A DNA stretch of 64,000 nt from an uncultured delta proteobacterium (GCA_963708295.1 CAVPSJ010000011.1:128001-192000), one strand, 5' to 3'; positions 41,541 to 54,604 are shown, counted from the stretch's first letter. The notes: generated from the sequence alone by a model not told the origin. Numbers and translations are program-made.

Positions 41541-42644
41541 TTAATTCCCCGCCTTGAAAAATCCCTTCCAACCATTCTCTCCCCTATCTTTCTTTTTACT
41601 CAACCCCTCAAATTCCCTTAATATCTCTTCCTGCCTTTTCGTCAAATTATTGGGTGTCTTCACGATAATCTGTACAATTTGATCTCCTCGACCATAACCT
41701 CTTGTTCTTGGAAAACCTTCTCCTTTTATCCTTAAGATCTGCCCACTTTCAATTCCTTTCGGTATGTCAAGATTTCCCTTCCCGGTTAAGGTGGGAACTT
41801 CTATTTCGGTTCCTAGCGCAGCTTGCGGGAAGCTTATGGGTATTTGGCAAATAAGGTCATCCCCCTCCCGCGAAAAAAAATCATGCGCCTCTACAAAAAT
41901 GAAAACGAAAAGGTCTCCGGGAGGGCCTCCTTTTTCTCCTTCCTCACCTTCACCGCGAATTCTAATCTTCGATCCTGTATCAACACCCGGAGGAATTTTT
42001 ATCTGGATTTTTCTTGTTTTTCTCACTTTTCCATGTCCGCGGCATTCCTTACAGGGATGAGGGATAATATTTCCTTCTCCGCGGCACTGGCTACAAGTCG
42101 TGCTGATTGTGAAAAAACCCTGAGAGCGCGTAACCTGCCCTGTTCCTTTGCAATTCGGGCAATGGGTAGGATACGTCCCGGGTTTAGCTCCAGTTCCGGT
42201 GCAGACTTCACATGGAACATTCTTCGGTATTTCAATCTCTGCTTCCTTACCGGAGGCAGCCTCATAGAATGATATCTTTAGATCATATCTTAAGTCCGCT
42301 CCAGGACGAGCCCTCGTTCTGCGTCTCCCGGTGGTTCCAAAACCAAAAAAATCTTCAAATATGTCCCCGAAGGTAGAGAAAATATCTTCGAATCCCCTAA
42401 ACCCCGTAAACCCGGTGCCTTTCAAACCTTCTATCCCATAGCGATCATAAATGTCCCTTTTTTCCGGGTCTCTGAGAACTTCGTAAGCCTCTGAGGCTAT
42501 TTTAAACTTTTCCTCTGCCTCTTTGTCACCGGGATTTCTGTCCGGATGGTACTGCATCGCAATCTTGCGGTAACTCTTCTTTACCTGGTCCTCAGTAGCA
42601 TCCTTTGAGACGCCAAGAATATTATAATAGTTTTTCTCTTCCAT
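41541..42644 (-). CDS. dnaJ: Molecular chaperone DnaJ
   Basis: HPD J-domain, G/F region, four CxxCxGxG repeats. Confidence 0.95.
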
Positions 42645-42739
42645 AAATCCGTATGCTCATTCCCGTCTGAAAGAAACTCAGATCTTACACCCCGGAATTC
42701 ATCCGGAGTGTCGCACAAAGTCACCCGGTGGTGCATGAC

Positions 42740-43084
42740 CTATTTTTCGTATTTCTCAAGAATCTTGCCCGTTCTTCCACCTTCAACTATCTCATCCATT
42801 TTAGATCCCAGGTCAACGCCTAAATCTCTCATCTTTTTCTTAGCCCACAGCCCGACATTTCTCGAGTCCTTATAAAATCCATCGCTCTTTGGTTTTGACG
42901 GATCAAAGTTTGCTAACCGAGATTCTTCGGTTTGGTGGACGCGAAACGAAGAAACCAATTTAGTTAGGTTTCGGCTGTGGCAGTATTTACATCTGATTTT
43001 ATGAACTTCTTCCGTGTTAAGAATCAGCTCGCTGAATTCCCGCTTGCATTGCTCACAGCGATACTCATATATTGGCATGGTCAC
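42740..43084 (-). CDS. FmdB-family zinc-ribbon protein
   Basis: MPIYEYRC..C....C..C.S. Confidence 0.85.
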   Translation of the reverse strand: MTMPIYEYRCEQCKREFSELILNTEEVHKIRCKYCHSRNLTKLVSSFRVHQTEESRLANFDPSKPKSDGFYKDSRNVGLWAKKKMRDLGVDLGSKMDEIVEGGRTGKILEKYEK

Positions 43085-43314
43085 TTTCCTTTTGCCTTCT
43101 TTTTTGTCACTTTTTTCTTAAGCGATGCCTCACTCACCTCTCTTGATTCGGATTGATCTGAATCGGCTGCAGCCTCTTCAGGATTGAATAACTTGGCGCT
43201 TACATCCGGCAGTTTTGCTAGAAAAATCTCGTAATCTTTTTGAGTGATTACCCCGCTCTTCATATTCCTTGCAACATTCCTCTTGTCAAATTTCTTATCT
43301 TCGTCAATATGCAT
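43081..43314 (-). CDS. Small hypothetical protein
   Basis: RBS GAGGAG before ATG 43314; FDKR.V.RN...G.I...DY...L..LPD. Confidence 0.65.
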   Translation of the reverse strand: MHIDEDKKFDKRNVARNMKSGVITQKDYEIFLAKLPDVSAKLFNPEEAAADSDQSESREVSEASLKKKVTKKKAKGK

Positions 43315-43485
43315 ACCGTTCTCCTCGATTTTTTTTACATAATAAAAGTTAGCATAATTTCCCATTTCCTTCAAGATGTATTATAACATCTTGTTATTTA
43401 AAATACATTTTAGCGTGTCATTCCAATCGACGGATGATAGAGATTTTAGGGACAAGGTATACTTAGAGAAGATTGTACAAAATTG

Positions 43486-43514
43486 TTGACAAATTTCAAA
43501 AATGTCTATATTAA
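43486..43514 (+). promoter_or_regulatory. Probable sigma70 promoter for reductase-ketosynthase-sensor operon
   Basis: Perfect TTGACA followed by AT-rich TATATTAA -10 region. Confidence 0.5.
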
Positions 43515-43651
43515 TAAGGTCAGCCGTTTAATTGAAGTTCAGGGGGTGAACTCCGGAATCTCTTCGTTTTGCTATTCATTCTGATGAAATTCCACGTCTG
43601 TGCGTCTTTCAGGATTTCTTGACTGCCCCCCAGAGGAGGATCGGCCCAAGG

Positions 43652-44614
43652 ATGAATATTCTTATTACCGGAGCAACTGGTTTTATCGGAAGATATCTTA
43701 CAGCAGCCCTGTCCAAGACTTATTCAGTGAGGTGCCTGGTAAGAAAAACTAGTGATATCAGCCCACTCAGAGACTTAAATGTTGAGCTGGTTTATGGGGA
43801 TTTACTTGATAAAGCCTCGTTACTTCCCGCCTTGGATAAGATAGATATCGTGTTCCATCTCGCAGGGGAAGTATATTCAAAAAAGGGGGCTGACTATTAC
43901 AATGGCAACGTTATGGGGACCAGGAACCTTTTGGAAGTATCTAAGAAAGGAAATCTCAAGAAAATAATTTACTTGAGTAGCATAGCAGTTTATAAACCGG
44001 TCAAGGAAAAAAAATTGCTTGCCGAGGAATCAGAGTGTGGTCCGATTACCCTATATGGCAAGAGTAAACTCGCTGCAGAAACAATGGTTAGACGGTCCAA
44101 TATACCGTTTGTTATCGTTAGAGCACCAGTTATATATGGCCCTAACCAGCCGCCTGTAATAAATAATTTTTTTTTAAACGCTCTTAAAAAGAAAAAAGTC
44201 TATATTATTGGAGACGGTCAGAATCTCCGAAGTATTTGTTTCATAAGAAATCTTACTAATGGACTATCGTTATTAATCAATAAGTTAGAAGCTGAAGGAA
44301 GAACATACGTGCTGTCTGACAACACGCCTTACACTTTCAACCAGATAACCTCGGCGATATCAAAAGTGTCCAACCACAAAATAAGGATCGTCTATCTGCC
44401 GAGCATACTAGCAGGAATCTCATGGCAAATTTATAAATTGATGGGTAATCTTTTTAATTTGTATTTTGTGGGCCTTTATGGGATCAAAACGATGCAACTA
44501 CATTTGGGATGCGATATCACCAAGGCTATGAAAGAAATGGGATACAGACCCTCAATCAGTCTGGAGGCGGGGATTAAATATACCGTCGAATGGATAGAAA
44601 ATTGTAACCTCTAG
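43652..44614 (+). CDS. NAD(P)-dependent extended SDR (epimerase/3-beta-HSD-like oxidoreductase)
   Basis: ITGATGFIG, FHLAG, LSSIAVY, YGKSK, R...IYGP. Confidence 0.88.
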   Translation: MNILITGATGFIGRYLTAALSKTYSVRCLVRKTSDISPLRDLNVELVYGDLLDKASLLPALDKIDIVFHLAGEVYSKKGADYYNGNVMGTRNLLEVSKKGNLKKIIYLSSIAVYKPVKEKKLLAEESECGPITLYGKSKLAAETMVRRSNIPFVIVRAPVIYGPNQPPVINNFFLNALKKKKVYIIGDGQNLRSICFIRNLTNGLSLLINKLEAEGRTYVLSDNTPYTFNQITSAISKVSNHKIRIVYLPSILAGISWQIYKLMGNLFNLYFVGLYGIKTMQLHLGCDITKAMKEMGYRPSISLEAGIKYTVEWIENCNL

Positions 44615-44643
44615 AAACTTCTGGAAACATAAACTTAAGCCTA

Positions 44644-45909
44644 ATGTATGGAAAATTAATGGAAAAAAGAAGAGTGGTTATCACAGGAATGGGAGTGGTT
44701 GCTCCCAACGGGATAGGATTAGAAGATTTTTGGAGTTCATTGTCACTCGGGCGATCGGGAATAAAAAAAATTACACGATTCGACGTATCCTCATACCCCG
44801 TCCAAATAGCTGGTGAAGTGCAGGATTTCAATCCTTTGATCTATATGACTCCCAAAAGAGTGAGACATATGGACAGGTTTGCTCAATTTGCAGTTACCTG
44901 TGCTAAAATGGCTTTAGAGGATTCCAAAGTAGACCTGACTAACACCGATACAAATAGAATCGGGATTGCTCTGGGATCGGCGCTTGGGGGGTTTCCTCTC
45001 GCTGAGGAACATTACGCGATTTTTTTAGAAAAAGGACTTAAGAGGGTTGACCCATACTTGGCAACAAGAACTTATATAGGGGGATCAACGAGTCAAGTTT
45101 CTATTGAATTAGGAATTAAAGGCCATTCAAATACAATCGGAGGGGCATGCGCGGTGGGAGCAGATAGTATCGGGTATGCACTTCTTGCGATTCGAAATAA
45201 TTTTGCTGATCTGATGATTGCGGGAGCAACAGAAGCACCTATTGCACCGCTAACCATTGGTTCCTTCTTCCAAATCGGGGCTCTCTCTCGTAAGAATGGA
45301 GACCCGACTCGGGCCTCAAGACCGTTTGATAGAGAACGAGATGGTTTTGTAATGAGCGAAGGAGGAGGAGTCTTGATCCTTGAAGATCTGGAAAATGCCC
45401 TAAGGAGAGGTGCCTCTATTTATGCGGAGGTGCTTGGTTACGCTACCACGAATGACTCTTATAGTATCACACATCCGCTACCTGACGGCCTACAGGCTAG
45501 AAAAGCGATGCAACTGGTACTGGAAGATGCCAATGTGGATCCCTCTGAAATCGATTACGTTAATGCTCATGGTTCCTCAACACCCTTAAATGATAAAATC
45601 GAAACAAAGATTCTAAAAGAAATTTTTGGAGAAAGAGCTTATAAACTACCCATCTCCTCCAATAAATCAATGATAGGCCATTCCTTAGGGGCCTCAGGAG
45701 CAATAGAGGTCATTGCTAGTACATTGACAATAAGGTACCAATTTATTCCTCCAACAATTAACTATGAATTTCCTGATCCTGAATGTGATTTAGATTACGT
45801 GCCAAATAAAGGAAGGAAGGCTTGCATTAACACGGTTCTATCGAGTTCATATGGATTCGGGGGGAAAAACTCCAATATTATTATAAGAAAATTCTCTACG
45901 TCTCATTAA
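44644..45909 (+). CDS. Stand-alone beta-ketoacyl synthase (FabF/KS-alpha family)
   Basis: RRVVITGMG, GACA catalytic Cys, NAHGSST, KSMIGHSLGA, GFGG.N; no ACP or other fab gene adjacent. Confidence 0.9.
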   Translation: MYGKLMEKRRVVITGMGVVAPNGIGLEDFWSSLSLGRSGIKKITRFDVSSYPVQIAGEVQDFNPLIYMTPKRVRHMDRFAQFAVTCAKMALEDSKVDLTNTDTNRIGIALGSALGGFPLAEEHYAIFLEKGLKRVDPYLATRTYIGGSTSQVSIELGIKGHSNTIGGACAVGADSIGYALLAIRNNFADLMIAGATEAPIAPLTIGSFFQIGALSRKNGDPTRASRPFDRERDGFVMSEGGGVLILEDLENALRRGASIYAEVLGYATTNDSYSITHPLPDGLQARKAMQLVLEDANVDPSEIDYVNAHGSSTPLNDKIETKILKEIFGERAYKLPISSNKSMIGHSLGASGAIEVIASTLTIRYQFIPPTINYEFPDPECDLDYVPNKGRKACINTVLSSSYGFGGKNSNIIIRKFSTSH

Positions 45910-45927
45910 GAATAGTAGCCTAGTCAG

Positions 45928-48088
45928 ATGAACACCTCTTTCATTATATCAGCAGCTCTATTAGGAATGCTCAGCCTCCTTTTTGGCGTTTTTGTCTATG
46001 CTAAGAACAAAACCTCAAATGTTAATAAAACCTGGATGATACTAAATTTCAGTGCTTCGTTATGGAGTTGGTCCCTCTTTGCGAGAGAATTATGCTCCGG
46101 TAGAGAAACAGCTCTTTTTTTTGTACGACTATGTTATGTTGGAGCAATTTTCATCCCACCCCTTTTCTTCCATTTTGTTAGTTTTCTAACGAAACGACTA
46201 GGAAGCAAATTGATTTTAGCTTTTTACAGTATAAGTTTGATTTTCTTAATCTTCAATTTCACAACTTTATTCATTAAGGATGTTAGACCAATTCTTTCTT
46301 TTCGTTATTATGGCATTCCGGGAATAGTATTTCCTTTCTTCGTCGGTTCGTTTATTGGGATAACAAGTTATGGCCATTATGTGTTATTTAGGTATTTTAG
46401 GGAATCACGGGGCGAAATACGAAATCAAATCAGATATTTGTTGTCTGCCACAATTATCGGTTTCTTAGGAGGGATATCAACCTTTTTGCCCGTTTTTAAT
46501 ATTGAAGTATTCCCATTTGGGTTTTATTTAATTTCGGTATACGTCGTGATTATCTCATATGCAATCGCAAAACACAGGTTGATGGATATTAATATTGTGT
46601 TAAAGAAGGGGACAACTTACATTCTTCTGTTGATAACCTTGTTTGTCCCGTCATTCCTTTTGATTCTTCTCGGCCAAAAGCTCTTCTTCTTTAAGATTAG
46701 TTATTTGTTCACGGCCATCATTGTTGCACTTCTATTTTTGGTGACCATCCTCTTTTACAGGATTAAGCCTCAGGCTGAAAGAGTGGTCGAGCAAGTTTTA
46801 TTCAAAAACCGCTACGATTATCGGGAGACGTTGGCAGACTTCAGCAAAGCCATGGTTTCTATTTTGGACCTGCAATCTCTTTCACGAAGAATCTTCGAAA
46901 CGATTACACAGACCATGGGGGTCGAGAAGGGATCTCTGTTTTTGTGGAATGAAGAAAAAGCAGGTTATTCTTTGTTCGAATCGAAAAGTATTGAAGCAAC
47001 TAGTGCAATTTCTCAGATTCCCAAAAGACGATCCCCTACCCCATTATTTGCAGAAAACGGGAGAGATTATTACCCGAGAAGAATTGGCAAAGGGAGTCAA
47101 TAACCCACCATTGAAGGATATTGCGGAGAAAATGTCTCTTTTAGATGCAGAAGTATCTATTCCTTTCATCTCAAAGGGACAACTCGTCGGTATGATGAAC
47201 TTGGGCTACAAGTTCACCAAAGATATTTATTCTTACGAGGATATTGAATTGCTCAGCACCCTGGCCAATCAAACGGCGATTGCTATTGAGAATGCAAGGT
47301 TATATGAAGACCTGAAGAGGTCAAAATCGTATATGCGCAGGGCGGATCGCCTTGCTTCCCTGGGAACCCTTACGGCTGGACTGGCCCATGAAATTCGTAA
47401 CCCCCTGGTGGCGATCAAGACCTTAACTCAGTTGTTGCCCGAGCGGCTTGAGGATGAGGAATTTCGAAGCCAGTTTCTCAAGATTGCTTCGGGGGAGGTA
47501 GACCGCATTTCTTCGCTCGTCAATGAGCTTCTCGATTTTGCCAGACCTTCCGACCCCAAGTGGGCGTTCGAGGACATCAACGCGATTTTAGACGGGATGA
47601 TTCTTTTGGTTTCGACGGGGACGAAGAAAAAACTCATCACCATTATTAAAAACTATGCCTCTAATTTACCACTTGCTCAGATCGATCGGGAACAGATTAA
47701 ACAAGTTGTTTTGAACATTTTATTGAATGCGATTGATGCTACCCCCGAGAACGGCACAATTACGGTTCAAACCCGATCCTTCATAAAACCAGGCGGAGAA
47801 CCCTACGTCCAGATTGAGCTCACGGACACGGGTTGTGGCATTCCAAGGGAGAACTTAGAAGACATCTTCAATCCTTTTTTCACAACAAAAGCCGCCGGGA
47901 GCGGGTTAGGGTTATCCATTTCGAACCAGATCATTCAAGACCACAAAGGATATATTGATGTGGAGAGTCAGTTGGAAAAAGGATCTTCCTTTTTCATCAA
48001 TTTACCGATCCGTCAGGACCATCCTAAAAGAAGAACGAGGGATTCAGAAAATAGCCAAAATGTCTCGTTGACCCCCGAGGAGCGATGA
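45928..48088 (+). CDS. Multi-TM (HisKA_7TM-like) + GAF sensor histidine kinase; single gene split by an extra base near 47023-47026
   Basis: N-terminal TM bundle ending YAI.K.RLMDI, GAF (EDIELL.TLANQ.AIAIENARLY), AHEIRNPL; removing one base from the C/A run gives continuous ..SQIPKDDPLPHYL.. Confidence 0.85.
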
Positions 48089-49623
48089 ACTACCAAGAGC
48101 TAATTCATTCCCCAATTATCTCATCTCAGATTATTTCGCTTATCGAAAAAGCCTCCCATAACAGTATCCCCGTTCTTATCCAGGGGGAGCATGGAACAGG
48201 GAAAGAATGGGTCGCTAAGATCATCCACCACGCCGGGGATTGGAAGTATTACCACTTTTATAAGATCGATTGCAAAACACAAACAGAGGATTCGTTCAAT
48301 CAACAGCTACAACGCATCTACACTGAGAACAACTTCGGAACCATCCCTGCCACAGTTTATTTCAAAGAAGTCGCCAGTCTGGAACCGCCTCTCCAGTCAA
48401 AGCTACTGGAACTGGTGGAAGATGGTTTTTTCCAAGCAGGTCTGGACAAGAAGATCATCACCAATCTCAGATTCATTGCGTCTTCCTCAGAGGATTTAAG
48501 AGAGAAAATCAGTCAGGGAAGATTTTCCGAGGATTTACACCACCGGCTCAATATTCTATCGATCCATATCCCACCCCTGAGAGACCGCGCCAAGGAGATC
48601 GCAACGATCATCAAATATGTTTTGGAAGAATATTCTAAGAAAATGAAAATAGGTAAGGTAGGAATATCTGACGTGGTTCTGAAATTGCTACAAAACTATT
48701 GGTGGCCGGGGAACCTGAAGGAATTGCAGCAAGTCATCGTCCGAAGTGCGATCTTTTCAGGGGGTAACCTTTTGACGGAAAAAGATCTTCTCTTCGAATC
48801 GGAAAATGAAAACAAATCTTTTGTCGCTTTTCTGAAGAAAGCCGACAAGGTCCCCGTCGAATCAAAACCCACCAACTTCTCATCCGACCAGAATGCGCAT
48901 CTTTTTTCGCTCTTCTTAATGGAGCTGGTCCATCGGATCAAGAATCCTTTGGTCTCCGTTAAGACCTTCACTCAACTTTTGCGAGAAAAATTCAACGACG
49001 GAGAATTTAGAGAACATTTTTACAAGATTGTCACGGAGGATATTGAAAAGATCGATACCGTCATGAACGGTCTTGTCCGTTACGTCAAAATTAATACGCC
49101 GATGGAAAAAAGGGACACGATCCACTTCATTCTCGAAGATGTATTAAGAAATCACGAAGCAGAACTCGAACGTAGAAAGATAAAACTGTTCAAGAAATTC
49201 GAAAAAGATCTTCCTGAAACGACCCTCCACGACGAACAGCTGAGATACATTTTGAATGCCCTTCTTCAATACGCGATCCCTTTTATCACTCCCAGCGGAA
49301 GCATCGGATTCTTAACCAAATCGTCTGATGCGGGAACCGAAGCCGGCGGATCACTCCCAAGGAATGGGAGATACATTGAAATTTTGATTGTTTTCACGGG
49401 TTACCGGAAACCCTTTGAACAATTCGAAACCGTATTGGGGATTCCTGCTGCCCCGAAGGAAGAGGCCATCGAATTGGAATTAAGGCTTATTAAAGAGATT
49501 ATTCAAAAGAATCAAGGGATGATGAAATTCGAAGTGAATGAAAAGAAACCGAGGACAGTGATTTCTTTGAAATTCCCTACTGAAAGAAGAAAGTTGATCT
49601 ATTATCAACCTGCGAATGTCTAA
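48085..49623 (+). CDS. Degenerate sigma54 AAA+ domain fused to HisKA and degenerate HATPase domain
   Basis: GEHGTGKE, WPGNLKEL but no GAFTGA, Walker B FKEV; C-half ELVHRIKNPLVSVKTFTQLL. Confidence 0.75.
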   Translation: MNYQELIHSPIISSQIISLIEKASHNSIPVLIQGEHGTGKEWVAKIIHHAGDWKYYHFYKIDCKTQTEDSFNQQLQRIYTENNFGTIPATVYFKEVASLEPPLQSKLLELVEDGFFQAGLDKKIITNLRFIASSSEDLREKISQGRFSEDLHHRLNILSIHIPPLRDRAKEIATIIKYVLEEYSKKMKIGKVGISDVVLKLLQNYWWPGNLKELQQVIVRSAIFSGGNLLTEKDLLFESENENKSFVAFLKKADKVPVESKPTNFSSDQNAHLFSLFLMELVHRIKNPLVSVKTFTQLLREKFNDGEFREHFYKIVTEDIEKIDTVMNGLVRYVKINTPMEKRDTIHFILEDVLRNHEAELERRKIKLFKKFEKDLPETTLHDEQLRYILNALLQYAIPFITPSGSIGFLTKSSDAGTEAGGSLPRNGRYIEILIVFTGYRKPFEQFETVLGIPAAPKEEAIELELRLIKEIIQKNQGMMKFEVNEKKPRTVISLKFPTERRKLIYYQPANV

Positions 49624-49632
49624 GAAAGGGAG

Positions 49633-51036
49633 ATGTTACCAGTGAACGAGAAGCTCAGAAGTGTCTTGGTGGTTGACGACGAGGTCGGGGCCCGTGAATC
49701 TCTCAAGATGATTCTAAAAAATGATTATGAGGTGTTTTCAGCGAAAGATGCGGAAGAGGCGTTTCATCACATCAAAGAGCGTTCCCCGGACGTCATCCTC
49801 CTGGACATCATTCTGCCCGACCTCGATGGGTTGAAGGTCTTGGAGAGGATCAAGCAGAATGACCCAGATATGGTTGTGATTATGATTACGGCCACAAAAA
49901 CGGTCAAAACGGCCGTAGAAGCAATGAAGCTCGGAGCCTATGATTATGTGACCAAACCCTTCGATATTGATGAATTACGCCTGATTATCAGCCGGTCCTT
50001 ATCCACCAAGGCTCTGGAGCACGAAGTTAAATATCGCCGAGAGGAGATGGATAAAAACTTTGATTTTAGAAATATTATCGGGAAAAGCAAATCCATGAAG
50101 GACATTTTCAAGGTGGTTAAACAAATCGCAGATTCGAAATCCACGGCTTTAATCATGGGAGAGAGTGGAACAGGAAAAGAGCTGATTTCCCGAGCTATCC
50201 ATTATAATAGCAATCGCAAGAATTATCCTTTTGTCACTATTAACTGTGCCGCGATTCCAGAAACGCTGATCGAGAGCGAACTGTTCGGACATGAAAAGGG
50301 GGCATTCACCAACGCCATCGAAAAGAAACTGGGCCGCTTCGAGGTCGCCCATCAGGGAACCCTTTTCCTTGATGAAATCGGTGAGTTGAGTTTGGCCACC
50401 CAGGCCAAAATCCTCAGGTTTCTTGAAGAAAGAGAATTTAACCGCGTGGGCGGCTCGAAGACGATTAAAGTTGATGTAAGGCTGATCACGGCTACCAACA
50501 AAGACCTGAATCAAATGATCAAGAAGGGAGGTTTCCGTGAGGATCTTTATTATCGAATTAACGTCGTCCCCATTTTGATCCCTCCCCTAAGGGAAAGGAA
50601 GGAAGACGTTCCTCTATTAATCGAGCATTTTGTAGGTAAATTTGGCACCGAAAATAATAGGAATGTGAAAGGAATCAGCAAAGAGGCTTTAGAGGTAATG
50701 ATGCAATATGAATGGCCTGGGAACATCCGCGAGTTAGAAAATTTGATTGAGCGCGTGATTACTTTGACGTCCAATGAATTTATTCAGCTGAATGAATTGC
50801 CTCCTTTCTTCAAGAGTGGTCCCCAGGTTGATGGATTGAAAGAATCGGTCCTGGGTGGAAAAGTCTCTTTTCTGCAAGCCGAAGAGGAGTTTGAGCGGGA
50901 GGTCATTTTAGACGCTTTGAAAAAGACGAATAACATCCAGTCCCATGCGGCAGAAATCTTAGGGATTAGCCGCCGGATATTGAAATATAAAATGGATAAA
51001 CTGGGCATCAATCAGGTTAAGCTCAAAGATTATTAA
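49633..51036 (+). CDS. Sigma54-dependent response regulator (NtrC family)
   Basis: [26 protein letters not shown]. Confidence 0.93.
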   Translation: MLPVNEKLRSVLVVDDEVGARESLKMILKNDYEVFSAKDAEEAFHHIKERSPDVILLDIILPDLDGLKVLERIKQNDPDMVVIMITATKTVKTAVEAMKLGAYDYVTKPFDIDELRLIISRSLSTKALEHEVKYRREEMDKNFDFRNIIGKSKSMKDIFKVVKQIADSKSTALIMGESGTGKELISRAIHYNSNRKNYPFVTINCAAIPETLIESELFGHEKGAFTNAIEKKLGRFEVAHQGTLFLDEIGELSLATQAKILRFLEEREFNRVGGSKTIKVDVRLITATNKDLNQMIKKGGFREDLYYRINVVPILIPPLRERKEDVPLLIEHFVGKFGTENNRNVKGISKEALEVMMQYEWPGNIRELENLIERVITLTSNEFIQLNELPPFFKSGPQVDGLKESVLGGKVSFLQAEEEFEREVILDALKKTNNIQSHAAEILGISRRILKYKMDKLGINQVKLKDY

Positions 51037-51044
51037 AATCATCA

Positions 51045-51072
51045 CAAAATTGTTAAATCCCGTTCAATTTTG
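51045..51072. promoter_or_regulatory. Inverted repeat, candidate enhancer (UAS) for sigma54 promoter
   Basis: CAAAATTG-12 nt-CAATTTTG about 120-145 bp upstream of the -24/-12 element. Confidence 0.45.
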
Positions 51073-51189
51073 AAGAACCCTGCCACGGGCGCCCCTTGGA
51101 ACAGCATCCCTCTCCGAATCGTATGATGATTCTTTTTTAATTCCAAATAGTTACACATCTATGTAAAATCGATTCTTCATGCCAGCATA

Positions 51190-51205
51190 TGGCAAACTTC
51201 TTGCT
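51190..51205 (+). promoter_or_regulatory. Sigma54 -24/-12 promoter of HD-GYP gene
   Basis: TGGCAAACTTCTTGCT, GG-N10-GC, near consensus. Confidence 0.8.
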
Positions 51206-51251
51206 TAAATGTTTCTTTTATCTGATTCCTATTCCACCGGGGGGCGAGGCA

Positions 51252-52388
51252 ATGGAAGCAAAAACCAACGCATCCAACATTCTCATCGTCGATGATGAAA
51301 TTGGGCCTAGAGAATCTCTACGAATGGTCCTAAAGCCGAACTATAATGTCTATACCGTTGAAAACGGATACGCTGCCATCCAAATGATTCAACAGGTCGA
51401 AATGGACGTATTGACGTTAGACCTCAAGATGCCAGGGATGAACGGAATCGAAACGCTCAAAGAAATTCGAATGATTTCCCCGGATGTCATGGTCATCATT
51501 ATCACAGGATACGGAACCTTGAAAACCGCCATTGAGGCGATTCGCTACGGGGTCTTTGATTATATCCCAAAGCCTTTCAATGTCCCCGAAATTTTATCGA
51601 TTATTGATAAATCCATCCAACGACGAAAACTCAATCTGAAGGTAAAAGAAGTTCTTGGCAACTGTTTCAATCAACAGCTCCTTCAAGAGCCCCTTGCTAA
51701 TGGGGATTCCCCCGTTCAAGGAGAAAACAAGCCAGTCGCCGATTGTAAATGGGATGATATTAACCTCTCGGACACGCAAAGTTGTCTCGAATTTGCCAAG
51801 GTCCTGGCATACACCCTTGAAGAGAAAGATCCTTATACCTCAGGCCATTCAGAGCGGGTCTGTTATTACTCGGATTTTATTTCCAAACGTCTTTCACTTT
51901 CACCTAAGGAGCGGAGTGAATTGCAGATCGCGTCTTATCTCCACGATATCGGAAAAATCGGCATCAGCAATCGGTTCATTAATAAAAAAGGGACCCTGAC
52001 CCCAACGGATTGGGCTGTCATCAAGCAGCACACCAGAAAATCGATTGAGCTTTTAGTCCCCTTGAATCTTTCCTCTAACATCATTTCTTATATCCAACAC
52101 CACCATGAACGTTACGATGGAACAGGCTATCCAGACGGATTAGCGGGGGAAAGAATCCCCCTGGGGGCGAGAATTATTGCCATCTCCGATTCCTACGACA
52201 GCATGACCTCGGATCGACCCTACCGAAAACCTCTTACGAACGGAGATGCGAAGAGTGAATTGCTGAAAAACGCCGGAAAGCAGTTTGATCCGAAGATTGT
52301 CAGTCTCTTCTTGGATGTATTAAAGGAAATGGAAGATGTCTTTCTCGTAAAAGATCATCTCAGAGCTCCTGCAGTATCCAATAGCTAG
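51252..52388 (+). CDS. REC + HD-GYP cyclic-dinucleotide phosphodiesterase (RpfG-like)
   Basis: REC; KDPYT.GHS.RV, LHDIGKIG, HHERYDGTGYPDGL; start moved to ATG 51252 (after RBS and downstream of the sigma54 promoter). Confidence 0.92.
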   Translation: MEAKTNASNILIVDDEIGPRESLRMVLKPNYNVYTVENGYAAIQMIQQVEMDVLTLDLKMPGMNGIETLKEIRMISPDVMVIIITGYGTLKTAIEAIRYGVFDYIPKPFNVPEILSIIDKSIQRRKLNLKVKEVLGNCFNQQLLQEPLANGDSPVQGENKPVADCKWDDINLSDTQSCLEFAKVLAYTLEEKDPYTSGHSERVCYYSDFISKRLSLSPKERSELQIASYLHDIGKIGISNRFINKKGTLTPTDWAVIKQHTRKSIELLVPLNLSSNIISYIQHHHERYDGTGYPDGLAGERIPLGARIIAISDSYDSMTSDRPYRKPLTNGDAKSELLKNAGKQFDPKIVSLFLDVLKEMEDVFLVKDHLRAPAVSNS

Positions 52389-52407
52389 AACGGTCCGGGA
52401 GATTTCA

Positions 52408-53163
52408 ATGAGCCGACTCATCCGTTGTAAGAATTGTGATCAAATTTTTCTAAAAAGCCCCTTTGACAAATGTCCGGAATACGGATTAGACTCCGGTGAT
52501 CCCCCTGAGAACTTTCAAAGCGTGGAGAGAGATGATTTCAGAGATTTCTTATTCCACCATCGGGGTCACCAATTGGAGGATTTGGATATCATTGAAGACT
52601 CTTACGTTAGCGAAAAGGCTTACTCCGAACCCGTCAAAACTTCTTTTCTTAAAGCGACCAACGGAAGAGAAAAGTTCGTGATCAAGAAATCTAGAGAGAG
52701 AATTGACGAACCCTTGAAATACGAATTGGTCTCCGGAGACTATTGCCTCAAATGCATCTCCGTAGTAATTCAACCCGAGGAGATCGAGAAACAATTAAGA
52801 AGAGAACTAAACCCGCCCCCTTCTCAAGACAAAATCGATGCCTTTCTGAAATTGATGGGTGCTCTCGCCGAGGACGTTGCCCTTCAAGACCTGGAAAGGA
52901 TTCCCGAGGCATCTCACCATCCTCTGGAGGTTTATTATAGAATCGATGATGTCCGTGTCATATATCTATTGAGAAACTGCCGCCATATTTTCGAAGGACA
53001 GGAATATTCGGCCATGGAGGAGTTCATCCGCCGACATAAGGACGATGGGGTACTGTTATTGAAAGCAATCTATAAAATCCAGATCAGCCAGAAGGCCGGA
53101 ACAAGGAAAAGGGTAACATCTCCCCTGCCCTTCGAAAAAGAAGAACTTTTTGGACAAAAATAG
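52408..53163 (+). CDS. Hypothetical protein with N-terminal CxxC
   Basis: Long ORF 19 nt after HD-GYP gene with RBS GGGAG; CKNC and HHRGH motifs. Confidence 0.7.
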   Translation: MSRLIRCKNCDQIFLKSPFDKCPEYGLDSGDPPENFQSVERDDFRDFLFHHRGHQLEDLDIIEDSYVSEKAYSEPVKTSFLKATNGREKFVIKKSRERIDEPLKYELVSGDYCLKCISVVIQPEEIEKQLRRELNPPPSQDKIDAFLKLMGALAEDVALQDLERIPEASHHPLEVYYRIDDVRVIYLLRNCRHIFEGQEYSAMEEFIRRHKDDGVLLLKAIYKIQISQKAGTRKRVTSPLPFEKEELFGQK

Positions 53164-53325
53164 ACTTCCCTCCTTCCTTCCTTCTTTTTCCCAACACAGA
53201 GGTCCCTGACTCGCCCTCAGGGACTTCTGTGGGTTTTCACAAAATTCAAACAATAAAATTGACAATAACACTTTAATCGGTTATTTTGGAATTAAATCTG
53301 CTGCTTACGCTCTTGGAGTATAGAG

Positions 53326-54174
53326 ATGGGTTCTTTCATATCAAGCCAAACATTTTTTAATATTTCGATGGGTATCTATCTCTTTTGTTTCCTGGGTTAT
53401 CTCATCTTTACAGCCACAAGAAATAGAAGTCTCGGAACCCTCTCCAGTTTCTTGCTCATCATTGGACTTCTTATTCATTCAGGAGGCCTTGTCGTCCGCT
53501 GGGTGGAGACACATCAGACGGGTTACGGCTATATCCCCCTGTCCAATATGTATGAATCCCTGATCTTCTTCTCTTGGACCATTGTTTTGATCTATCTTAT
53601 TCTGGAATTGAAATATCGGCAGAAAATCATAGGGGTTTTTGTCACTCCTTTTGCTTTCCTGGCGATCGCCCTTACCTCCATCATCCCAGGCATAGATGCA
53701 AAGATCACCCCCCTGATGCCTGCCCTCCAGAGCAATTGGTTAACCATCCATGTGACCACCTGTTTTTTTGGATATGCAGCCTTCGCGGTGTCTTTTGGAG
53801 TCAGCATTCTTTATTTAATCCGAGACAAGAAGGGGTCGCCTAAGGAGGAAGGTTCAAAATGGCTGCCTTCGACCCAAATTCTGGATGAGATCAACTATAA
53901 ATCGATTGTGATCGGGTTTCCCATGTTGAGCTTGGGCATTATTACAGGTGCGGCATGGGCAAATTATGCGTGGGGGACTTACTGGAGCTGGGATCCCAAA
54001 GAGACCTGGTCTCTCATTACTTGGTTTGTTTATGCCGCCTTCTTACATGCTCGATTTACAAGGGATTGGAGAGGAAGAAAGGCCGCGATTCTGTCGATTG
54101 TCGGGTTCGTTGCAGTCTTATTTACCTATTTTGGCGTGAATTACATTCTTTCAGGACTCCATAGCTACGCTTAG
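53326..54174 (+). CDS. ccsA: System II cytochrome c biogenesis heme-delivery protein
   Basis: P.SN.YES, LQS.WL..HV, WA..AWG.YWSWDPKE WWD motif, GLHSY. Confidence 0.93.
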   Translation: MGSFISSQTFFNISMGIYLFCFLGYLIFTATRNRSLGTLSSFLLIIGLLIHSGGLVVRWVETHQTGYGYIPLSNMYESLIFFSWTIVLIYLILELKYRQKIIGVFVTPFAFLAIALTSIIPGIDAKITPLMPALQSNWLTIHVTTCFFGYAAFAVSFGVSILYLIRDKKGSPKEEGSKWLPSTQILDEINYKSIVIGFPMLSLGIITGAAWANYAWGTYWSWDPKETWSLITWFVYAAFLHARFTRDWRGRKAAILSIVGFVAVLFTYFGVNYILSGLHSYA

Positions 54175-54178
54175 CCGA

Positions 54179-54604
54179 TTAAAAGCGATAGAGCTCCTCG
54201 TCATACATGTGAACCCAATTCTTTCTCAGAACCTGCACCGCTTCATCCATTTTATCCACGCCAACAATGAGTACGGTCTTTTCCCCTGTTCCAAGGCAGG
54301 TATAGAGATATTTCACATTAATAGAAAGTTCTTTAAGGGGTTTTAGAACGGCGTTCAAGCCTCCTGGATGATTGGGAGTTTCCACCGCTAATACATCTGA
54401 CATTTTTATCGAATAACCGTGGCTCTTAAGGATATTGGCAGCTTTTTCAGGATCGTTTGCCACGAATCGAACAGCACTGATGTCTGCGGTGTCAGCGACA
54501 CTGAGGGCGATGATGTTGACGCCGTTCTCGCCTAAATACTCACTCACCTCGGAGAGTTTACCAGGAACATTTTCGAGACTAACAGAGATTTGCTTGACAG
54601 GCAT
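54179..54604 (-). CDS. Tandem ACT-domain protein
   Basis: QISV.LEN.PG.L, ..PGGL..VL. Confidence 0.88.
   Translation of the reverse strand: MPVKQISVSLENVPGKLSEVSEYLGENGVNIIALSVADTADISAVRFVANDPEKAANILKSHGYSIKMSDVLAVETPNHPGGLNAVLKPLKELSINVKYLYTCLGTGEKTVLIVGVDKMDEAVQVLRKNWVHMYDEELYRF

Follow-up and report, generated by a model that had tools for sequence, protein, structure and literature searches.

What does a lone ketosynthase do beside a membrane sensor kinase? This question is raised by seven co-oriented genes on the plus strand of an uncultured delta proteobacterium (43486..53163 in a stretch of 64,000 nucleotides, GCA_963708295.1 CAVPSJ010000011.1:128001-192000, which we will call the window). 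They encode, among others, a FabF-like ketosynthase (KS), a kinase whose input is a seven-transmembrane-helix (7TM) domain, an NtrC-family sigma54 activator, and an HD-GYP phosphodiesterase for cyclic-di-GMP (c-di-GMP). We found that the KS and the 7TM domain are exchanged between loci as one cassette, with a breakpoint inside the kinase gene (near 46573). We propose that the locus makes and senses a lipid signal of its own, with specificity types that can be swapped, and we put the probability of this reading at roughly 60%.

The ketosynthase and the sensor domain

The KS in the window scores 525.6 bits against TIGR03150 (FabF; cut-off 493.75), and its Cys-His-His triad and conserved Lys are all present. 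It is not the housekeeping FabF, to which it is just 46% identical. The housekeeping gene lies in a fabD-fabG-acpP-fabF operon about 110 kb away on the same contig (G000 C11:61064), and no gene for an acyl carrier protein (ACP) or other fab gene adjoins the locus. Across the genomes of this family, the housekeeping FabFs are 80–90% identical, while pairs of cassette KSs are anywhere from 42 to 94% identical. In a quick tree, 31 KSs that adjoin 7TM kinases form one clade (SH-aLRT 95), and the housekeeping FabFs are separate (97).

The 7TM domain scores 67.1 bits against HisKA_7TM (PF16927), well above the gathering threshold of 28.6. A structure model has seven helices, with a mean pLDDT (a per-residue confidence score) of 71 and higher values in the first 160 residues. 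The domain is predicted to have a fold like that of G-protein-coupled receptors (GPCRs), with an extracellular beta-hairpin: the best match to a GPCR fold has a Z score of 16.6 and a root-mean-square deviation of 3.3 over 203 aligned residues, although likeness of fold says nothing about function. When the 7TM alignment was compared by sequence to solved structures, a single weak match came up (E = 0.039), and a search of the ESM Atlas gave HisKA_7TM clusters only. In the accessible text of two papers, HisKA_7TM is merely listed as a sensor domain, with no ligand given (PMC5847659, PMC6944256).

The ketosynthase and the sensor domain move together

We fetched 40 loci that encode relatives of the kinase. 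The KS gene is immediately upstream in 27 of these and one gene away in another. The rest comprise three loci without upstream DNA, one with a deletion, and eight from a distant paralogous kinase clade, in which none of the six loci with upstream DNA has a KS. In a class-wide search, 34 of 68 genomes proved to have this 7TM family. Among loci that had not been used to build the profiles, the KS was directly upstream in 11 of 11, and its type (such as A, B, or C) was that of the 7TM domain in each; one further locus has no upstream DNA. In metagenomes, a KS gene ends within 150 nt upstream in all 40 loci at 60% identity or above, and in 17 of 36 more distant ones.

Other enzymes come and go. 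An extended short-chain dehydrogenase/reductase (SDR), encoded first in the window, is found in 19 of 30 informative type-A metagenome loci. Among family-level genome loci, we saw it with type A only, and in none of type B. Further accessories are a methyltransferase (in three type-A genome loci) and B12 radical-SAM enzymes. The conserved unit is the KS plus the 7TM domain, and the SDR is optional.

Across 25 family-level loci (two type-C loci with unmatched junction patterns were left out), divergence of the KS tracks divergence of the 7TM domain, with a Mantel r of 0.946; the corresponding values are 0.11 for the KS and the kinase core and 0.012 for the 7TM domain and the core. Similarly, the KS and 7TM trees have five supported splits in common, as against one for the KS and the core and none for the 7TM domain and the core. 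The outcome with 20 loci was similar. Both comparisons overstate the effect, because kin are not independent; individual pairs of loci, however, display it directly.

The initial annotation of this DNA, which a model made from the sequence of the window, had set synteny of the synthase and receptor genes beforehand as a test, along with co-evolution of the KS and the sensor domain and separation of the KS from the housekeeping FabF. All three were borne out. Its suggestion that the KS and SDR together make a signal was too narrow, because only one type of cassette carries the SDR, as an accessory.

The right edge of the exchanged block is fixed within the kinase gene. Protein identity jumps immediately past helix 7 of the kinase, and DNA similarity resumes no more than 25 nt from 46573 in the type-discordant pairs that we tested. 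For instance, the flanks of loci L040 and L043 have DNA identities of 93.5% and 96.2% and their kinase cores are 97% identical, but the 7TM regions are 36% and the KSs 59% identical. The kinase core nearest to the window's (L185) is 84% identical, yet its 7TM domain is just 25% identical. The left edge is at about 43516, just past the promoter, where similarity to L047 stops and where four contigs from run X6 have loose ends. Furthermore, GC content at third codon positions steps from 0.335 to 0.50 at the breakpoint; it is 0.41 in the SDR gene, 0.35 in the KS gene, and 0.335 in the 7TM region, compared to 0.48–0.53 in the downstream genes. The enzyme genes and the sensing part had been described as AT-rich, which is so mostly at third codon positions, but dnaJ is similarly low (0.42). 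Two different major types are present in seven of the nine genomes with multiple copies.

The pair has also been lost jointly. In L047, a deletion extends from about codon 23 of the KS through to the breakpoint. In loci from three genera (L212, L213, and L214), the promoter is kept, the kinase begins with its GAF domain, and neither the KS nor the membrane part is present.

Adjacent DNA that moves as one block co-varies regardless of function, so the KS and the 7TM domain might be functionally unrelated neighbors that hitch-hike on one recombining block. Physical linkage by itself can yield correlated identity, and this weighs against reading a partnership into the co-divergence. However, the edge of the block coincides with a domain boundary inside the kinase gene. 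Also, the pair recurs in several phyla and in four or more genomic contexts, and it is lost jointly. We consider hitch-hiking to be very improbable.

Several loci carry marks of rearrangement. Short N-terminal remnants of KS genes lie beside or upstream of the present cassettes in L242, L252, L254, L260, L044, and L047; these look like scars of earlier replacement or deletion of cassettes. At L191:11395-12534, a gene for a DDE transposase breaks the cassette KS. At L073, a 3.7 kb contig that was binned to an archaeal metagenome-assembled genome has a type-A SDR-KS-7TM cassette, by mis-binning or by transfer. The kinases of L212, L213, and L214 may be signal-blind or cytoplasm-sensing derivatives.

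A proposed lipid signal

We propose that the KS, in some types aided by an SDR, a methyltransferase, or a B12 radical-SAM enzyme, would convert acyl-ACP or acyl-CoA from the host cell to a type-specific fatty-acyl small molecule. The product would be released from the cell and would bind the GPCR-fold 7TM domain of the adjoining kinase, which it might turn either on or off. The kinase, tuned by the product of the next gene (a fused pseudo-activator and pseudo-kinase), would set the phosphorylation of NtrC. NtrC would bind boxes that are common to two promoters and turn on the sigma54 promoter of the HD-GYP gene, which would lower c-di-GMP. NtrC would also exert feedback on the promoter of the cassette itself, probably as a repressor. 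Recombination between about 43516 and the codons past helix 7 (about 46573) would swap the KS-7TM specificity cassette, and new types of signal and receptor could plug into an unchanged kinase core.

Several observations weigh against this proposal. The KS had been described as catalytically complete, which is correct for the window's enzyme but not for most of its relatives: the second catalytic His is replaced by Gln in 11 of the 14 type-B KSs that were aligned and in 117 of 120 KS homologues, and the type-C KSs lack the conserved Lys. In FabF, the second His and the Lys serve the decarboxylation of malonyl groups, so many members of the KS family may not be ordinary elongating enzymes. The family-level cassettes encode neither an ACP nor a release enzyme. 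The outer half of the 7TM domain does not differ significantly from the inner half in identity between types (0.22 vs. 0.28, p = 0.23, in a comparison that took in 7 of 13 type-A rows). The GAF-first kinases of L212, L213, and L214 may reflect a single event. The position of the putative operator at the cassette promoter suggests negative rather than positive feedback. Finally, the kinase gene is frameshifted in the present assembly.

The frameshift, which the initial annotation overlooked while correctly describing a kinase with a membrane-helical input (HisKA_7TM-GAF-HisKA-HATPase), is due to one extra base in a run of A at 47023 (+1). It splits the gene into open reading frames at 45928-47103 and 46949-48088. 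This is most likely an assembly error, because the relatives are single open reading frames of about 720 amino acids, the extra base is missing from the contigs of two of four sequencing runs, and the gene reads through in a metagenome copy whose 7TM region is 89% identical and whose A run is one base shorter. The other genes of the window that were compared to a close relative are unbroken. We also considered a programmed or recurrent frameshift. The kinase gene of L055 is split similarly, but at a different site, a few codons off, and in an assembly whose second copy has several breaks, so we rejected this explanation.

As for the KSs with Gln in place of the second His, they might carry out acyl transfer, act in a heterodimer, or purely sense acyl groups. 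The KS might be a co-sensor instead of a synthase: its Cys would capture an acyl chain from acyl-ACP, acyl-CoA, or an outside fatty acid, and the protein would control the kinase by touching the 7TM domain on its cytoplasmic side. The Cys and the first His are retained in every aligned cassette KS, even as loss of the second His or of the Lys is common, and a physical partnership would equally yield co-divergence, co-transfer, and co-loss. However, the type-A KS has the full triad, and tailoring enzymes (SDR, methyltransferase, radical SAM) share the cassette. In other phyla, the KS is accompanied by an ACP, or unrelated biosynthetic enzymes take its place. A made product fits better than a co-sensor because of these tailoring enzymes, KS-ACP sets, and unrelated replacements, and we consider the co-sensor explanation unlikely. 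Prediction of a complex between the 7TM domain and the type-A KS yielded a score of 0.00 and a mark of 0.32, which we counted neither for nor against.

A second FabF paralogue (L152:856-2151, or G000 C5:93355-94650) is mostly single-copy and is found in 62 of the 68 genomes of the class. In family f3 it directly precedes the variable KS, which resembles the pairing of a KS with a chain-length factor. As a heterodimer partner of the variable KS it is only a lead, since it is present in those 62 genomes whether or not they have a cassette.

Alternatively, the cassette might tailor membrane lipids in chain length, methylation, or reduction, and the 7TM domain would sense them in the membrane of the same cell, as part of an internal feedback loop instead of cell-to-cell signaling. 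A FabF-type KS, B12 radical-SAM enzymes, and an ICMT-type methyltransferase are the kinds of enzymes that act on membrane lipids, and the family-level loci have no linked exporter. But strongly diverged types within one genus, with two per genome, are more typical of social signals, and the housekeeping FabF is highly conserved over the same genomes. We see this explanation as a little less probable than the co-sensor.

We also considered that the KS might be a resistant or decoy FabF, with the 7TM domain sensing an antibiotic that inhibits FabF. A spare FabF with an altered His could escape inhibitors, and the specificity of the sensor would follow the KS. However, the sigma54 promoter drives the gene of a c-di-GMP phosphodiesterase instead of that of the KS, and in other phyla unrelated biosynthetic enzymes fill the slot of the KS. 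This seems highly improbable.

The sensor domain in other phyla

The 7TM domain is also found in Nitrospirota, Omnitrophota, Patescibacteria, Planctomycetota, and other phyla. By our reading, 49 of the 59 informative 7TM loci in these phyla have a gene for a small-molecule enzyme or a lipid transporter upstream, but this tally has no background control and counts in common methyltransferases, which weighs against giving it much weight. (Of 67 loci, 8 were excluded as too short or duplicate.) In 13 of the 49, there is a FabF-like KS. The other phyla's upstream genes encode KS-ACP sets, AONS-like enzymes, crotonases, LuxD-like and acyl-ACP-reductase-like proteins, methyltransferases, radical-SAM enzymes, and FadL.

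These loci suggest a broader proposal, which we hold tentatively and rate at somewhat below even odds. In candidate phyla and uncultured anaerobes, GPCR-fold HisKA_7TM domains may be a widespread family of receptors for lipid signals that the cells make themselves, encoded in plug-in cassettes with the synthase. The synthases would be FabF-like KSs here and methyltransferases or AONS-like, acyl-ACP-reductase-like, or crotonase enzymes elsewhere. The c-di-GMP loop would be closed by the HD-GYP output and by synthases fused to PilZ domains, and the chemistry of the His-to-Gln KSs would be non-standard.

Fusions of PilZ domains to enzymes are encoded beside 7TM kinases at L092:5638-7899 and at L103, L113, L125, L143, and L148. 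The enzymes are a KS, a methyltransferase, an aldehyde dehydrogenase, and a radical-SAM enzyme. One PilZ-PilZ-KS fusion precedes a 7TM kinase, NtrC, and HD-GYP. Such fusions could possibly provide feedback from c-di-GMP on signal synthesis.

L064-L071 belong to a distant clade of 7TM-GAF kinases (23–27% identity) with NtrC but not the KS. These kinases may be orphan receptors or have an unrelated input.

Comparison to known signaling systems

In the Phc system of Ralstonia, the synthase and the receptor co-diverge into signal types that are independent of the species phylogeny (PMC7694676, PMC11960443, PMC6580516). As with PhcB and PhcS, the gene for the synthase of a (here putative) fatty-acid-derived signal is directly ahead of a membrane histidine kinase. 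Unlike the FabF-like KS, PhcB is a methyltransferase that makes 3-hydroxy fatty acid methyl esters, and the output here is through NtrC, sigma54, and HD-GYP. There is no methyltransferase gene next to the kinase in the window.

The staphylococcal agr locus has a mosaic structure. In agr (PMC6580516), as in Bacillus comQXP (PMC4008528), the signal-making genes co-vary with the membrane domain at the N-terminus of the kinase, and the core is conserved. Our loci have this hallmark of pherotypes: the candidate synthase and the input domain of the receptor co-vary on a conserved kinase core. In contrast to the peptide signals of comQXP and agr, there is no gene here for a precursor peptide or for peptide processing.

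RpfF/RpfC/RpfG of Xanthomonas (PMC4159695) also combines a membrane kinase with a REC-HD-GYP protein, and its signal is fatty-acyl. However, RpfF is a crotonase, and no ECH domain was found among the genes of our locus. Furthermore, the kinase here has no REC domain, and HD-GYP is behind NtrC and the pseudo-kinase. The initial annotation needs amending on how HD-GYP is controlled: unlike in RpfC-RpfG, the first link would be transcriptional, via NtrC, because the HD-GYP gene has its own sigma54 promoter.

PpyS of Photorhabdus is a stand-alone ketosynthase that makes a signal, but it is FabH-like and its product is read by a LuxR protein, PluR (PMC7154725), instead of a 7TM kinase. Our KS is FabF-like, not FabH-like, and the locus encodes no LuxR domain.

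CqsA/CqsS-LuxO of Vibrio has an acyl-derived signal, a membrane kinase, and a sigma54 activator that binds its own promoter region; its synthase depends on pyridoxal phosphate (PLP) and its output is a small RNA. The window's locus encodes no PLP-dependent, AONS-like synthase. CqsA-like enzymes are in just two distant loci of the 7TM family (L108 and L126), below the cut-off of NF005526. PrsK/PrsR of PEP-CTERM systems have a similar architecture, with a membrane-GAF kinase and an NtrC-type regulator. The two halves of our kinase score 28.8 and 121.9 against TIGR02916 (PrsK; cut-off 300), and NtrC scores 458.5 against TIGR02915 (PrsR; cut-off 502.6).

By analogy, then, the locus would work like Phc and comQXP, with an HD-GYP output as in Rpf, but its parts exclude it from each of these systems. 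We found no description of this KS-7TM system in the literature that we searched, which was mostly without subscription papers or supplements. Naturally matched and mismatched pairs of 7TM domains and candidate synthases make the ligand of a bacterial GPCR-fold receptor testable. If our proposal is correct, it describes a new signaling language for abundant uncultured anaerobes of sediments, as well as a subfamily of ketosynthases that have altered catalytic residues and are annotated in databases as ordinary FabF.

Other features of the locus

The coordinates of the genes and promoters are given in the table. At the site between dnaJ and ccsA, the pseudo-kinase, NtrC, and HD-GYP genes lie downstream of the KS-7TM pair, and they do so mainly there. 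The first five genes lie close together, with 29, 18, -4, and 9 nt between them. The initial annotation had noted these tight gaps but counted six genes, overlooking the seventh. It correctly recognized the NAD-dependent reductase, the degenerate AAA+/HisKA fusion followed by an intact activator, the sigma54 promoter of the HD-GYP gene, and the lack of an adjacent ACP or fab partner.

Table. Features of the locus, in window coordinates.
Feature	Position	Strand	Remarks
Cassette promoter, sigma70-type, -35 at 43486-43491	43477..43515	+	Two flanking ACAA-N2-TTGT-like boxes
Extended SDR, HpnA/OleD-like, under all family cut-offs	43655..44614	+	Optional accessory of type-A cassettes
Dedicated FabF-like ketosynthase (KS), type A, Cys-His-His	44644..45909	+	Fast-evolving clade, tied to 7TM kinases
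7TM input domain of kinase, HisKA_7TM (PF16927), hypervariable	45928..46572	+	Exchanged jointly with KS
Conserved kinase core: two more membrane helices, GAF, HisKA, HATPase	46573..48088	+	Begins at exchange breakpoint
Pseudo-activator/pseudo-kinase: degenerate sigma54 AAA+ fused to HisKA	48085..49623	+	
Intact NtrC-family sigma54 activator: REC Asp, Walker A/B, GAFTNA, HTH_8	49633..51036	+	
Tandem enhancer boxes, 51044-51053 and 51064-51073	51044..51073	+	Core motif as at cassette promoter
Sigma54 -24/-12 promoter of HD-GYP gene	51190..51205	+	
REC-HD-GYP c-di-GMP phosphodiesterase, HD and GYP motifs intact	51252..52388	+	ATG at 51252
Seventh gene, conserved, no known family	52408..53163	+	Invariant Cys7, Cys10, His51, His54

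The boxes at the cassette promoter (43477-43486 and 43496-43505) are a putative operator for the NtrC-type activator. The box ACAAAATTGT has only two plus-strand copies in the window: one at 43477, which abuts the -35 element, and one at 51044, with the sigma54 site 146 nt downstream. There are 16 copies genome-wide. This box precedes the cassette in 14 of the 29 loci examined; among the 15 family-level loci that have the HD-GYP promoter, 12 have the box upstream of it. The TGGCA and TTGC cores of the sigma54 site are invariant in 10 of 10 aligned loci. An 18-mer from the cassette promoter is found in 30 of 68 genomes, all from this family (control, 0). We infer that NtrC activates the HD-GYP gene and represses or tunes its own operon; repression is the more probable form of feedback because the boxes flank the -35 element. 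Rfam had no match in 42000-54500.

The SDR contains the GxxGxxG, Ser, and YxxxK motifs. It scores 117 bits against HpnA (cut-off 367.65) and 106 and 91 bits against OleD (cut-off 580). The REC-HD-GYP protein contains PF00072 and PF13487.

The pseudo-activator domain lacks GAFTGA and has an altered Walker B motif, and the Lys of Walker A is gone in several relatives. The pseudo-kinase half has an invariant His283 in an H-box that is similar to the kinase's own, along with a degenerate ATP-binding domain. Because the H-box is invariant and the ATPase motifs are degenerate, the protein is likely to be a phosphatase or a phosphotransfer modulator. Four more proteins resemble the C-terminal pseudo-kinase half, at 39–46% identity (G000 C15:262799, C13:110857, C7:205577, and C12:105587).

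The seventh gene encodes a protein of 251 residues with a CxxC...HxxH pattern, whose invariant residues are probably a zinc site. It is likely co-transcribed with the HD-GYP gene. The protein had no match in Pfam, none in the Atlas at 0.9, and no fold match above Z = 5.4. The gene was not detected at the site in two genomes with GAF-first kinases (two of the three reach that far). A paralogue (L154:5453-6217, on G000 C3) has a PilZ gene on one side and a GGDEF gene on the other, which suggests that this family tracks c-di-GMP genes.

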